Below are positions 28,701-35,153 of a stretch of 64,000 nucleotides of DNA, one piece after another. Source of the DNA: a virus. Location of the stretch: the IMG/VR virus record IMGVR_UViG_3300031746_000003, positions 1-64,000 of that record. The stretch is one strand, 5' to 3'. The position numbers and the translations under genes were made by a program. Under the pieces are notes generated by a model. The model did no database searches. It was not told the origin of the DNA and saw only the letters and a program-made list of their open reading frames with translations. The stretch's first letter is position 1. The number at the start of each line of letters is the position of its first letter.

Positions 28701-31700
28701 ATGGCCTATCTAGACCACGCAGAGGCGTATCGACACTTCAGGGACCGTACCCTTGAGGGGATAACTGAGTACTTTCCAGTACACGGTAAAATCCAGAGCC
28801 TTCATCTAGACCATCTAGAGGTGGACGAGGGAAAGCTAGGTCCTGACGATATACGGGCACAGTTAGCTGCGAAGAACTCAGGAGTAAGTTGGGCTGCCCC
28901 GGTCTACGCGACGATGTCGCTAAAGAACAATGCAACTGGTCATGTCATAGACAAGAAGAAAATACGTATTGCTGAGGTACCCATGGTTACTCAGCGGTAC
29001 AGCCAGATCATTGACGGGCAAGAGTACCAGGTAGGCAACCAGTGGCGCTTGAAGCCAGGTGTCTACGTAAAGCGTGGTAGGTCTGGTGAGCTGGCAGCCA
29101 AGTTTAACGTCCCTAACAAGTCGTCATTCGACATATCGTTTAAGCCGGACACAAAGTTATTCATGATAAAGCGTGGTAGCTCTGAGGCTATCAACGCGTA
29201 CCCCATAATGAAGACTATGGGGGTCACTGACGACCAACTGTCTAAGAGCTGGGGTCATGACGTTTTCATAGCTAACAAGAACGCTCGGGGCACACAAACA
29301 GCAGTAGACCGGTTCTTCAAGGTAGACAAGAAGCGCGCACCGGTGGACAAAGAAGAAGCTGAGAAGCACGTATACGACGTACTGACGGCATCCATTCTGC
29401 GTCCTGAGGCCACCAGTATATCTTTAGGTAAGCCGTTCTCTAACGTGACCGGAGAAGCGCTACACTTAGCAACTCAGAAGATACTTAAGGTACAGGCTGG
29501 TCACCCAGAGGATGATCGTGATTCCCTGGTGTTTAAGGATCTACATACAGCTGGTGACTTCGCCTATGAGAAGATCACAAACTGGAAGACTAAGAATGCC
29601 ATTACTGGCAAGTTCGCACGTAAGGTCAACACGGCTACTGGCATACGTGACGTTGTAAAATTCGATACGTTTAACAAGCCTATTAGAGAGACCTTTACCA
29701 AGAACAGCGCAGCTGAGGTACCCGACCAGATAAACCCAGTAGAGATGATGGCTGCCGCTCAGCAAACAACCATCATGGGTCCAGGTGGTATTCAGAGCAC
29801 CCAGCAGGTTAACGAGGAAGCAAAGTTTATCAATCCTTCTAGCCTTGGGTTCATAGACCCTGTGCGTACGCCCGAAGGTGAGAAGACTGGCATCAATTCT
29901 CACTTACCTATGGGGGTACGTAAAGTCGGGCATGAGGCGAAGATACCTTTGTATAACCTACGCTCTCATCAGACAGAGATGATTGGGCCAGGTATCTTCG
30001 TTAACTCTAGGGTCGTCTTGCCAGATCAGGTGTCGTGGAAAGACGGCAAGCCGCAAGCTAGGTATGCCAGCACTAAGATGTCTGGACCTAAGAACGCTAT
30101 TGAAGAGGGTAAGTTCTCTAGCGCTGACTATGTACTAAAGCACCCGTCGCAGCTGTTCAACATCACCACTAACTTGATTCCCTTTCTAGGGAACAACTCT
30201 GGTAATCGTGCGACGTATGCCACCTACCACATAGAACAAGCCATACCTCTTGTGCATCGTGAAGCACCGTTGGTTCAATCAGCTACGGGAGCGAGCAAAG
30301 AAGGCATCAGAACTTTTGAAGAGATAGCTGGTAAGAAGGCTAGCCACGTAGCCCCAGTGGCTGGTCATGTGCACTCTGTTAAGGATGACGCTGTAGTGGT
30401 GCGTGATGCCGCTGGTAAGATGCATGAGGTACAGCTGTACCGGTACTTCCCACTTAATGACCCTAAGAGCTACCTGCACTCTACCCCAGTAGTGAAGGTG
30501 GGGGACAAGGTGGCTCAAGGCCAGGTGGTGGCTGATACTAACTTCACAAAGGGTGGTGTGCTCGCCCTGGGTACAAATTTGCGTGCTGCCTACCTACCTT
30601 ACCGTGGGTACAACTTTGAAGACGGTGTGGTCATCAGCGCAACAGCCGCCAAGAAGTTAACTAGTGAGCACATGCACAAGCCGACTATTCGGCTTGACGA
30701 TAAGATCGTAACATCCCCTGAGCACTTTCAAGTAGAGCACCCTGGCTCTTTTACGCAGGAGCAGTTCAAGAAATTGGACAGCTCTGGTGTTGTCAAAGTT
30801 GGTCAAACAGTTACTACTGGTGACCCACTTGTCATAGCCATGCGGCCGTTCAACATGAAGGACAGGACCGGGGCATCAGCTATCCGGCGTAGTCTTTCTG
30901 GCTCACACACGGATGTTAGTCTCAGGTGGACATCCGACCACCCAGGTGAGGTAGTCGGGGTGCACAGGAAAGACAAGGACAGCGTAGTTCATGTACGCAC
31001 TCTCGAACCTATGCAGGTGGGGGACAAGATAGCTGGTAGGTACGGGAACAAGGGTATCGTTACGCTCATCGTTCCTGACCATAATATGCCCCATACCAAA
31101 GATGGTAAGCCCACAGAGATTTTGCTTAATCCCTCCGGTGTTCCTGGTCGTATGAACATTGGCCAGGTGTTAGAGACGGCTGCTACAAAGGTAGCTAAGA
31201 AGACTGGTAAGCCCTACTTAGCGCAGAGCTTCGCCCCGTTAGACCAATTGGAGCAGGTGAAGCGCGAGCTACACACTCATGGGATAAGTGACACGGAAGA
31301 GTTGCATGATCCCATATCTGGTAAGTCATTAGGCACAGCTCTAGTGGGGCAGCAGCACATACTAAAACTAGCTATCCAGATAGATAAGAAGATATCTGCA
31401 CGTTCTGGTATGGGCCTACCAGGTACTGGGCATGACCTTGAGACTTACGACATGAATCTCATGCCGGTGTCCGGGGCTAAGACTGGTGGTCAAAGTATTG
31501 GTATGCTGGGGCTCAATGCGTTACTCGCGCATGGGGCTAAAGCCAACATCCGAGAGATGCAGACTTGGAAGAGCGAGGGCGTAGACCCACAGACTAATCC
31601 AAGTAAGCGGTGGGAGTCACAGCACCTGGATGTGTGGGGTGCTATCCAAAACGGAACACCGCTCCCAACTCCAAGGCCCACGTTTGCTTTTCACAAGTTC

Positions 31701-34700: not shown

Positions 34701-35153
34701 TTAACTAAGGAGTTGCATGGCTCGTACTCTTCTGAAGGTATCCGTAGGCAGCACGTAGAGTTGCTGGTCAAGTCTATGAGTAACTTGACCAAGGTACGTG
34801 ACCCAGGAGATTCCGAAGGGATCATCAAGGGAGAGTTTCACCCCACGTCTGTTATCAAGGCACTCAACGCGAAGCTTGTTAAAGAGGGGAAACAGCCAGT
34901 GGAGCACTCACCAGTACTGATGGGTGTTGACATGATGCCACTTAAGGTACAGGAAGATTGGATGGCCAAGATGTACCACAACCGTCTGAGAGAAACGGTT
35001 ATGGAGGCTGCCGCTACTGGAGCTCGCTCAGACATCCACGGTATTCACCCGATACCTGGGGCTGCCTACGGAGCGGAGTTTGGCTACACGGAAGCACAGA
35101 AGTTGGAACCTGGGCTACACCATCTGAAGGACGTACCGCGCTACGCGTACTGA
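28701..35153 (+). CDS. single-chain fused beta-beta' DNA-directed RNA polymerase
   Basis: Beta: GPGG, TPEG, LIPFL, GYNFED, GDKIAGRYGNKG, NPSGVPGRMNIGQ. Beta': RSVIV, RDPALH, catalytic NADFDGD, bridge helix GAR, trigger loop QLTMKAFHTGG. Confidence 0.95.
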   Translation: MAYLDHAEAYRHFRDRTLEGITEYFPVHGKIQSLHLDHLEVDEGKLGPDDIRAQLAAKNSGVSWAAPVYATMSLKNNATGHVIDKKKIRIAEVPMVTQRYSQIIDGQEYQVGNQWRLKPGVYVKRGRSGELAAKFNVPNKSSFDISFKPDTKLFMIKRGSSEAINAYPIMKTMGVTDDQLSKSWGHDVFIANKNARGTQTAVDRFFKVDKKRAPVDKEEAEKHVYDVLTASILRPEATSISLGKPFSNVTGEALHLATQKILKVQAGHPEDDRDSLVFKDLHTAGDFAYEKITNWKTKNAITGKFARKVNTATGIRDVVKFDTFNKPIRETFTKNSAAEVPDQINPVEMMAAAQQTTIMGPGGIQSTQQVNEEAKFINPSSLGFIDPVRTPEGEKTGINSHLPMGVRKVGHEAKIPLYNLRSHQTEMIGPGIFVNSRVVLPDQVSWKDGKPQARYASTKMSGPKNAIEEGKFSSADYVLKHPSQLFNITTNLIPFLGNNSGNRATYATYHIEQAIPLVHREAPLVQSATGASKEGIRTFEEIAGKKASHVAPVAGHVHSVKDDAVVVRDAAGKMHEVQLYRYFPLNDPKSYLHSTPVVKVGDKVAQGQVVADTNFTKGGVLALGTNLRAAYLPYRGYNFEDGVVISATAAKKLTSEHMHKPTIRLDDKIVTSPEHFQVEHPGSFTQEQFKKLDSSGVVKVGQTVTTGDPLVIAMRPFNMKDRTGASAIRRSLSGSHTDVSLRWTSDHPGEVVGVHRKDKDSVVHVRTLEPMQVGDKIAGRYGNKGIVTLIVPDHNMPHTKDGKPTEILLNPSGVPGRMNIGQVLETAATKVAKKTGKPYLAQSFAPLDQLEQVKRELHTHGISDTEELHDPISGKSLGTALVGQQHILKLAIQIDKKISARSGMGLPGTGHDLETYDMNLMPVSGAKTGGQSIGMLGLNALLAHGAKANIREMQTWKSEGVDPQTNPSKRWESQHLDVWGAIQNGTPLPTPRPTFAFHKFTEMLKAAGVNIEKKGNQFQLSPLTDKQVLSMSKGELPRPMDLTHAKLDDNGEPKPKTGGLFDPRLTGGHGGKNWTHIKLAEPVPNPVFEGAIQKVLGLSKTDYQSIVSGDKAISRSGAIVALGAIGADTGGAGIKRLLQQIDVKKDLKKAEAELGSISIPKGTTSSGITQKVDKLVKKVKYLRALDASGVHPADAYVLHNLPILPPALRPASVLPDGTISWADMNGLYSQFAQVNEQLKDPVISKNLSDTAKKQLRADLYDGMRAIVGQGSEESDQKGVLLQIHGSQPKKGFFQQTLLSRKQDLSMRSVIVPEPSLSIDQVGLPRSKATTLFRPFVVRKLVEIGAARSPIQAQELIAKKDPSVDRALDLVMEERPVLMKRDPALHRHSVMAFNAKAVPGRAIQIHPLVTTGYNADFDGDTMSVYVPISNEAVAEARKMMPSNHLFNEATGHVMFVPTLESALGMYKMSLVNKKVGNQSFAKTSDALKAVQSGTLHINDLATIAGTKTTAGRVLLADSLPKEMQKKILEDHSHILDEKNRSALFTHLAKNHSGNYGAVADKLKDLGTGMSMGVITLPHPDGSGPAVIKSAENYSKDRFHISVGAHSLSLKDIETDRAVRDPILKAAQKEVDAINSSTSIPTADKERRAILVWTTAADKLKKDHLASDFQSNLLTMQRAGVKPGWTQYKQLVLAPLLVADASGKIVPVPIRRSYSEGVDVGEYWTQMQGARAGNLKKVQEVREPGFFSKKLVNSTMSLVINVDDCGTHNGIALPATSNDVQDRTLVKDFSAKGMTIPAGTLLSPDMISQIRAADKDAHVVVRSPLKCEQEKGLCQKCTGLSATGVPYPIGTNIGLLSAQALGERSVQLTMKAFHTGGVVAGGAKTLSAFAKVDQLTKLPDVIPDSASLAMHSGKIDKIEKDQTGVKVWIGGHAHHVGKDRTGMPLHEILAHSQEMEGFIPWKAPKVGEHVEAGESLSDPNRTTVNPHQLYKATGSIERVQNFLTKELHGSYSSEGIRRQHVELLVKSMSNLTKVRDPGDSEGIIKGEFHPTSVIKALNAKLVKEGKQPVEHSPVLMGVDMMPLKVQEDWMAKMYHNRLRETVMEAAATGARSDIHGIHPIPGAAYGAEFGYTEAQKLEPGLHHLKDVPRYAY

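Follow-up and report, generated by a model that had tools for sequence, protein, structure and literature searches.

A single-chain bacterial-type β-β′ RNA polymerase lacking the β′ zinc ribbon in a large phage lineage, and its candidate sigma factor

Analysis of a 64,000-nucleotide stretch of viral DNA (positions 1 to 64,000 of IMG/VR record IMGVR_UViG_3300031746_000003, hereafter the window) revealed one gene, at 28701..35153 on the plus strand, whose product of 2150 amino acids (aa; P0001) unites bacterial-type β and β′ subunits of RNA polymerase (RNAP) in a single chain without the N-terminal zinc ribbon of β′. The gene product appears to comprise the entire catalytic core of a phage RNAP with bacterial ancestry. 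In our reading, to which we give a probability of roughly 70%, this core is most likely paired with a sigma70-family factor of the same phage and would serve phage promoters without alpha or omega. The window covers the initial 64 kb of a virus record of 120,344 bases, here called C1 and estimated to be 64% complete, from an uncultured myophage of about 187 kb found in sediment. The phage codes for a family-A DNA polymerase, a helicase, a large terminase, a head protein and a sheath-like protein; related genomes reach 185-190 kb, two of them have terminal repeats, and completeness is 99-100% for five.

The sequence-only reading of this DNA had described the motifs of RpoB followed by those of RpoC in one open reading frame (ORF) of 2150 aa, and this description held. 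The frame runs without an internal stop, and its full length is kept in the family. All quoted strings were found in the translation: GVNIEK at aa 1008-1013, KGNQ-FQLSPLT at 1014-1024, GGLFDPRLTG-GHGGKN-WTHIKLAEP at 1058-1082, EMMAAAQQ at 348-355, NADFDGD at 1413-1419, DDCG at 1761, RSPLKC at 1820 and CQKC at 1832. Structure prediction with AlphaFold2 (AF2), Foldseek comparison and Pfam domains divided the protein into a β module (aa 1-1013, 28701..31739, plus strand) and a β′ module (aa 1014-2150, 31740..35150, plus strand), joined through about four linker residues. The junction itself (aa 1008-1024, GVNIEK-KGNQ-FQLSPLT) lies at 31722..31772 (plus strand), and the catalytic NADFDGD motif, whose aspartates are kept family-wide, at 32937..32957 (plus strand). 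The active centre is intact, as are the bridge and trigger region, the clamp and the second zinc site.

Alignment to profile hidden Markov models, one of the checks proposed for the sequence-only reading, gave scores above the Pfam cut-offs for two β domains, Rpb2_3 (aa 341-402, 34.2 bits) and Rpb2_6 (aa 551-902, 198.7 bits), and for two β′ domains, Rpb1_2 (aa 1301-1439, 109.9 bits) and Rpb1_5 (aa 1715-2041, 75.5 bits), while Rpb1_1 (aa 1017-1241) stayed below its cut-off with 32.9 against 39.7 bits. The best Pfam E-values for the polymerase were 2e-58 and 2e-31. Among NCBIfam models, bacterial rpoC (481.5 bits) and rpoB (344.2 bits) scored far higher than the archaeal A′ (110 bits) and B (127 bits) subunits. 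Nevertheless, the equivalog cut-offs were clearly missed, both for rpoB (PRK00405, 344.2 against 896 bits; TIGR02013, 301.2 against 801 bits) and for rpoC (TIGR02386, 481.5 against 963.5 bits). It follows that the protein is only distantly related to bacterial β and β′ and is not a captured cellular gene.

The two halves were also modelled separately with AF2 from family alignments of 62 rows. Both models were of high confidence, with a predicted local distance difference test score (pLDDT) of 86.8 and a predicted template modelling score (pTM) of 0.82 for β, and a pLDDT of 88.9 and a pTM of 0.85 for β′, and they superposed on whole bacterial subunits. In a Foldseek search of the PDB, the top match of the β half was the Thermus thermophilus β chain 4oin_C (query TM-score, TMq, 0.80; 1128 columns), and those of the β′ half were 9a4w_B and the Staphylococcus aureus chain 8x6f_D (TMq 0.82). 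The top matches of both halves were exclusively bacterial polymerase chains, aligned over their full length; the N-terminal 340 residues, to which Pfam gave no name, thus correspond to ordinary β lobes. A region at aa 715-745 (30843..30935, plus strand) is probably the flap tip of β, judging from comparison with the bacterial subunit; the AF2 model shows a short helix there (722-727) and then a loop of low confidence (727-733).

The description of the enzyme as streamlined applies only moderately. The smallest solved bacterial chains among the matches listed, a β of about 1100 aa (8syi_C) and a β′ of 1161 aa (7l7b_D), sum to about 2260 aa, so the phage protein lies only about 5% below the leanest solved cellular pair. 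Compared with the β and β′ pair of Escherichia coli it is about 20% shorter. The missing zinc ribbon, by contrast, was clear. The protein contains just four cysteines, none of them before aa 1763, and all four are ligands of the second zinc site (C1763, C1825, C1832 and C1835; 33987..34205, plus strand), which is thereby retained as the sequence-only reading had stated. A Cys4 ribbon at the N-terminus of β′ is therefore impossible. Its place is taken by a short cysteine-free loop (aa 1058-1082, 31872..31946, plus strand), and between the two flanking conserved blocks we counted about 59 residues, compared with about 115 in bacteria according to a weak HMMER alignment.

These features are shared by the family. 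In a set of 111 members, comprising proteins of 2100-2230 aa, the three catalytic aspartates were kept in all 111, and the second-site cysteines C1763, C1825, C1832 and C1835 in 111, 111, 111 and 107, respectively; exactly four cysteines were present in 86 of the 111. The junction followed the consensus GxNxEKKGxx-xQLxPxTD across the set, and the loop replacing the ribbon, TGGHGGKKW(S/T)H, was conserved family-wide. Among the 80 best relatives in IMG/VR, every one had at most one cysteine within the first 110 aa of β′.

An altered rifampicin cluster I had also been noticed, with EMMAAAQQ at aa 348-355, and this alteration was borne out. HMMER aligned AEVPDQINPVEMMAAAQQTTIMGPGGI of the phage β with the bacterial rifampicin cluster I, and the equivalent region spans aa 340-363 (VPDQINPVEMMAAAQQTTIMGPGG; 29718..29789, plus strand). 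In E. coli numbering, the residues that we take to occupy positions H526, R529 and S531 are A, Q and T in the phage enzyme. Among the 111 family members, at least 105 have S, A, G or N at the position of H526 and 110 have T at that of S531, while the position of D516 was variable. Rifampicin insensitivity is a plausible consequence of this changed cluster.

A fusion of this kind could arise from misassembly or gene calling, or the gene could be a decaying relic, an explanation to which we assign a negligible probability, as no evidence supporting it was found. The sequence-only reading had named a stop at the junction as the sign of an assembly artefact. Instead, the junction at 31722-31772 was bridged without substitution or indel by contigs from three of four other runs (X2, X3 and X5); the fourth run (X4) has a coverage gap at 31607-31754. 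The stretch is contained in 24 runs labelled sediment metagenome, which may stem from one campaign, and no RNA data are listed among these 24. The junction lay in a single open frame in all of the 80 best of at least 572 IMG/VR loci, and the conserved catalytic and second-zinc residues (kept in 107-111 of the 111 members) likewise speak against a relic. A HMMER search with the β′ half over 1.84 billion representative proteins yielded 13,097 at E≤1e-3 and 2,765 at E≤1e-30; of the best 150 representatives (50% clustering), 126 united the end of β and the start of β′ in one chain, and 108 of these 126 had both halves complete. The fusion is real and general in the family.

The size of the chain was equally stable: of the best 120 matches in a collection of 5.8 billion proteins, 110 measured 2119-2214 aa and ten measured 2438-2672 aa. 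Eight of these ten longer polymerases carry LAGLIDADG, homing-endonuclease or intein domains, and insertion of inteins or homing endonucleases into the polymerase gene is frequent (P0007, P0013, P0031, P0035, P0048, P0056, P0066 and P0109). One relative (L019) has a polymerase open frame of 3259 aa, and representatives were as long as 4739 aa. A megablast search with the gene found no match among 50,697 phage records. A scan for close relatives of P0001 over 185,579 species genomes gave 27 pattern matches and no relative, and thus no prophage or host clue.

The nearest cultured relatives are Salmonella phage Arash (polymerase pieces Gp206 and Gp216, sigma factor Gp10) and the Vibrio phages D69, D148 and D181. 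These phages share with the present one the polymerase clade, with about 30-32% identity over most of the length, the sigma family, a nearby portal gene and genomes of about 181-188 kb. The arrangement of the polymerase differs: in the cultured phages, one protein of 1525-1527 aa joins β with the N-terminal half of β′, and the C-terminal part of β′ is a separate gene located between about 0.6 kb (D69) and about 5 kb (Arash) downstream, while here the whole enzyme is contained in one chain. In D181, a free-standing homing-endonuclease gene additionally interrupts the first polymerase piece. The Arash record labels the pieces as beta subunit, and the accessible part of the paper does not discuss the fusion, the absent zinc ribbon or the lack of alpha (PMC10585845).

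To place the family, two unrooted trees were calculated from β′. Tree 1 (FastTree) comprised 74 rows and 923 columns, with 42 bacterial rows, after random removal of 25 rows from the 53 of the family and of 38 from the 80 bacterial ones. Tree 2 (IQ-TREE in quick mode, LG+C20+F+G4) comprised 39 rows, namely 14 family members, 22 bacteria, D69, Arash and Rhizobium phage RHph_TM30, with Ralstonia phage RP13 excluded. The bacterial sample consisted of the best tblastn matches and did not include Helicobacter and Wolbachia. In both trees a branch with support of 100 set off the fused family, D69 and Arash, and all sampled bacteria (42 and 22 rows) lay on its other side with support of 99 and 98, respectively. 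The phylogeny that had been proposed as a check therefore set the fused family apart from all sampled bacteria. In tree 2, the split forms nested within the fused ones (support 91, unstarred), which suggests that the split polymerase is secondary to the fused form.

Natural RpoBC fusions of Helicobacter and Wolbachia resemble the phage protein in that the C-terminus of β is linked covalently, head to tail, with the N-terminus of β′, and the models for such fusions, NF007172 and NF011417, gave the best NCBIfam scores, 531.9 and 482.7 bits against cut-offs of 5372 and 4632. The cellular fusions differ in having about 2840-2890 positions and in working with alpha and omega; they also keep the zinc ribbon. 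Because the phage family falls outside the 42 sampled bacterial β′ sequences, its fusion appears to have arisen independently of cellular RpoBC.

The enzyme had further been proposed to be distinct from the split polymerases of phiKZ-type and crAss-type phages, and in this respect the proposal was correct: it is one chain, present as one set, accompanied by a sigma gene and recognised by cellular profiles. The phiKZ/AR9-type polymerases are likewise phage-encoded relatives of β and β′ that lack alpha and omega, but they consist of four or five polypeptides, occur as virion and non-virion sets and use factors without sigma likeness (PMC7598289). Here, one gene per genome encodes one chain, the sigma factor is recognisable, and the structure matches bacterial and not phage polymerases. 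The crAss-like polymerase (phi14:2 gp66 type) is a single chain of similar size that holds both barrels, and it is carried in the virion. That enzyme goes unrecognised by cellular β and β′ profiles (PMC7481178), while the present one is readily recognised and superposes on whole subunits.

A set of 97 contigs described as mReC, the multisubunit-RNAP-encoding Caudovirales of metagenomes (Weinheimer and Aylward 2020, PMC7481178), also derives from uncultured tailed phages of IMG/VR with bacterial-like β and β′ that stand apart from cellular lineages, and it may include the single-chain family. In its accessible text, that paper speaks of β and β′ subunits, mentions fusion just for crAssphage, and refers neither to a sigma factor nor to a missing ribbon (PMC7481178). 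Moreover, the major capsid proteins of mReC match PF07068 (T4-type; PMC7481178), while the head protein candidate here (51057-52181) matched phrog_2522 at E 5.8e-10 and gave no PF07068 match at E≤1. No publication that we found describes a phage polymerase of bacterial type as fused or as a single chain, the mReC paper and a jumbo-phage review being the nearest matches; the accessible part of the "moraphage" paper reports no RNAP genes (PMC12619734). Stand-alone or split bacterial-like β′ genes also occur in the above-mentioned cultured phages RHph_TM30 (L120; β′ of 1127 aa) and RP13 (L121). Both fall outside the fused family on long branches and represent separate phage polymerase lineages; in tree 1 the RP13 β′ joins that of TM30 as two long branches, a placement from which we draw no conclusion.

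The statement that neither alpha, omega nor sigma genes are present stood for the window in a profile search, but not for the genome. Profiles for RpoA (PF01000, PF01193) and omega (PF01192) gave no match in the 120-kb record and in seven relatives, five of which are 99-100% complete, while the same searches were positive in 14 of 14 control genomes. Extending the search for alpha and sigma to the remainder of the record, as had been suggested, revealed a sigma70-family gene and no alpha. Independence of alpha and omega is therefore plausible on the basis of gene content. It is conceivable that the covalent link between β and β′ replaces the role of the alpha dimer, which in cells keeps the two subunits together.

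Alternatively, the enzyme might not be self-sufficient and might assemble with host alpha, perhaps also omega, in the manner of the cellular RpoBC fusions. Both halves have the full bacterial fold, which presumably includes the regions that contact alpha in cells, and the Helicobacter and Wolbachia fusions keep alpha. Nevertheless, we consider this unlikely, as a conserved reliance on the alpha of each host would be demanding for hundreds of divergent phages with presumably diverse hosts; in addition, phiKZ/AR9-type phage polymerases function without alpha (PMC7598289), and an enzyme packaged in the particle would be unable to bring host alpha along.

The sequence-only reading had gone further and considered the enzyme possibly sigma-independent. 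This was not borne out, given a sigma70-family gene in the same genome, its co-occurrence with the polymerase and a modelled contact with the clamp helices. The gene (P0122, 247 aa) is located at C1:99906-100649 on the plus strand, about 36 kb beyond the window. It is divergent but passes Sigma70_r3 (PF04539) with 35.8 against 25.3 bits and resembles FliA/WhiG-type sigmas (E 5e-9, aligned over aa 20-165). Within the window Sigma70_r2 had no match, and the sole weak Sigma70_r4 match in the record was at C1:100314-100385, outside the window. Homologs of P0122 with 41-45% identity were present in all five complete relatives, and weak region 2 matches (E 0.0017-0.06) were obtained in the homologous ORFs of four of the five. 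Among 50,697 phage records, P0122 had only five matches, namely Arash, Vibrio D69, D148 and D181 and one cyanophage; the first four all carry a polymerase of the present clade, and the match in Arash is its annotated sigma factor. A wider search yielded 84 homologs, some of them on contigs equal in bases to polymerase-bearing ones (180,696, 186,737 and 180,683).

One complete relative (G003, L022) has an additional, conventional sigma70-family gene of 396 aa with a Sigma70_r2 score of 43.5 bits. As a trait of the family this extra sigma was rejected, since it is absent from the 120 kb studied here and below cut-off in the other four complete relatives.

We then predicted the complex of β′ (aa 1014-1560) with P0122. 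The interface score (ipSAE) was 0.78 (0.75, 0.79 and 0.78 in individual runs), compared with 0.00 for the best of three controls. Of 80 solved complexes, 58 reach the mark applied to such predictions, as do two of 110 mismatched pairs; these counts are only approximate here as own alignments served as input for both partners. The runs shared at least 67% of contacts, and the pLDDT of the partner was at least 70. The modelled interface joins β′ 1211-1258 with residues 61-77 and 107-115 of the sigma, which corresponds to the canonical region-2 contact. The β′ segment is the clamp coiled coil (32331..32474, plus strand; AF2 helices at 210-226 and 236-254 of the β′ part) and thus the predicted docking site of sigma. 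The core would accordingly join P0122 via sigma region 2 on the β′ clamp helices to form a holoenzyme of two polypeptides, which would read phage promoters independently of alpha, omega and the host polymerase.

A phage sigma could instead redirect the host core, as do T4 gp55 and SPO1 gp28, leaving the single chain to start with another factor or with none. It is common for a phage sigma to act on the host core, and P0122 resembles cellular FliA/WhiG-type sigmas; moreover, the phiKZ/AR9-type polymerases use factors without sigma sequence likeness (PMC7598289). We nevertheless regard this as quite improbable, because the sigma family tracks the polymerase, being found in five of five complete relatives and the four cultured phages and in just one other record of the 50,697, and because the clamp coiled coil is kept and scored 0.78 against 0.00 for controls in the model. 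In addition, polymerase and sigma were detected together in preparations of Arash particles (PMC10585845).

Five intergenic sites on the minus strand, each before small non-structural genes, share the pattern (T/G)CAA(T/A)-N18-ATAAT with identical spacing. Two of them lie in the window, TCAAT-N18-ATAATAG at 24640..24690 and GCAAT-N18-ATAATAG at 39910..39960 (both minus strand), and might be targets of the phage holoenzyme. The −35-like elements start at 24676, 39945, 107133, 107765 and 108717 (the last three outside the window, on C1) and the −10 blocks of the same sites at 24655, 39924, 107112, 107744 and 108696. A TGAGGGAATC-like start region follows downstream in four of the five, all but 39945. 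While five motifs were observed, 200 Markov simulations gave 0.35 +/- 0.6, a comparison that is post hoc because the pattern was derived from the same sites. The exact motif was not kept in eight related loci, where merely loosely similar GGGGATAATA sites were found, in L019 and L021. A sigma containing regions 2 and 4 would fit this two-box geometry, and it is possible that these sites are promoters. A scan of 27500-37500 for consensus sigma70 promoters and terminators detected seven promoter-like sites (8.4 expected) and three terminator-like sites (6.5 expected).

The location of the gene raises the question of when the enzyme acts. It lies in a block of virion genes between the portal gene (20769..22697, plus strand; tblastn to Arash gp204 and its Vibrio D69 counterpart, E 1e-85 and 5e-90) and the large terminase gene (41578..43350, plus strand; phrog_675, E 2.6e-57). 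One base after its stop begins the gene of a 444-aa spike-like protein (P0356; 35155..36489, plus strand), for which Atlas feature matches of 0.94-0.96 serve as a lead only; the clusters matched contain Phage_base_V and Gp5_OB and would place the protein with spikes of the gpV/gp5/VgrG type. The spike-like gene directly follows the polymerase gene in eight of eight relatives, and the order portal, RNAP, spike-like protein, terminase is kept in all eight related loci, with head genes further downstream. In mass spectrometry of Arash particles, Gp206 was the most detected protein (3516 spectra), ranking above the major capsid protein, and Gp216 (1210 spectra) and the sigma Gp10 (467 spectra) were present as well (PMC10585845). 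Position in the virion block and abundance in Arash particles suggest that the enzyme is probably made together with the virion proteins and may be borne by the particle. The cysteine content points in the same direction: 0.19% for the polymerase and zero for the sigma P0122, compared with a proteome mean of 0.87% and 0.9-3.4% for replication enzymes and terminase. Several proteins of the virion block are equally poor in cysteine, and several large ones are free of it.

By analogy with Arash, the particle might bring the enzyme along for the onset of the next infection, although we hold this to be the less likely case. About equally tentative is a scheme in which polymerase and sigma both enter the capsid and reach the new cell along with the DNA, and the whole of transcription proceeds from the phage's own (T/G)CAAT-N18-ATAATAG promoters, the host enzyme never being used. 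If the enzyme is packaged, the single chain in place of five subunits, the scarcity of cysteine and the lack of zinc ribbon, alpha and omega could be understood as adaptations to packing, threading out and refolding alone. With its two polypeptides it would then be the smallest self-sufficient bacterial-type holoenzyme known, and virion polymerases would have arisen along a third, independent path in addition to those of the N4/crAss and phiKZ types.

The same enzyme and sigma might equally remain outside the particle, with the host polymerase transcribing the first genes and the phage holoenzyme then the middle and late ones, like the non-virion polymerases of the phiKZ type. This is a serious alternative, though one we would not favour. 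There is no sign of packaging in the genome itself, and the list of 116 Arash particle proteins includes ribonucleotide reductases and ligases, which suggests carry-over (PMC10585845). The motif EKxA, present in eight head-block proteins, is missing from the RNAP, and the divergent intergenic region just upstream of the gene (28598-28700) could hold a promoter of its own. What argues for packaging instead is that the gene lies within the portal-to-terminase block, one base before the spike-like gene, in eight of eight relatives, that the RNAP is top-ranked in Arash particles (PMC10585845), that its cysteine content is like that of virion proteins, and that host-type promoters are in no surplus at 27500-37500.

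Several observations weigh against our reading of a self-sufficient core with its own sigma, or against its packaging. The absence of alpha and omega was judged by sequence profile, and host alpha could be recruited; cellular β-β′ fusions, engineered or natural, still use alpha. The record is itself only 64% complete. Region 4 of P0122 (helix-turn-helix) scored 18.9 bits against a cut-off of 24.1, region 2 had no match, and the protein lies far under every NCBIfam sigma cut-off. Sigma and clamp are a textbook pair, so that the passing score of the predicted complex shows a retained holoenzyme likeness and not binding of P0122. Fusion is not universal, as 24 of the best 150 representatives have no β part and are fragments or stand-alone β′. 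The Arash polymerase is only about 32% identical to the phage protein, its particle proteome counts 116 proteins, and the authors allow for carry-over of abundant enzymes (PMC10585845). Finally, the polymerase does not share the EKxA motif of the head-block proteins, an absence that neither supports nor excludes packaging. Overall, the earlier interpretation stands as regards a conserved single-chain bacterial-type enzyme without the β′ zinc ribbon, but not as regards sigma independence.

Bacterial RNAP is taught as an obligate alpha2-β-β′-omega assembly that needs sigma, and here a phage lineage dispenses genetically with alpha, omega and the β′ zinc ribbon. The lineage is very large and almost unstudied; its loci in IMG/VR number at least 572, and its metagenomic proteins run into the thousands. 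It would offer a natural minimal system for the need for alpha and the zinc ribbon, for sigma recognition on a reduced core, and for escape from control of the host polymerase and from rifamycins. These questions are testable, as cultured relatives exist (Arash and Vibrio D69, D148 and D181) and the protein is encoded by a single gene. As a compact bacterial-type polymerase, it is also a candidate for orthogonal expression systems.

No second RNAP set was detected in the record or in the five complete relatives, each of which has one polymerase gene per genome. A tRNA scan of the window gave no genes. PHROGs and Pfam assigned no family to the neighbours at 27243-27845, 27800-28381, 35155-36489, 36492-37109, 37118-39175 and 39972-40919.

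The EKxA motif occurs in the first 45 aa of eight head-block proteins, with nine matches there compared with 19 elsewhere in the proteome (Fisher p 0.03). The respective ORFs start at 22700, 37118, 44443, 46156, 47915, 50110, 51057 and 56959, all in the region 22700-58632 on the plus strand. The motif may be a prohead-protease or capsid-targeting signal, and the sigma P0122 contains a looser version, EKTKTA. Between portal and polymerase, a block of non-structural genes on the minus strand (24064-28381) forms an odd insertion into the virion block; four of its genes, coding for a 435-aa HNH-endonuclease-like protein, a 407-aa ATPase and two unknown proteins, are kept in eight of eight relatives.

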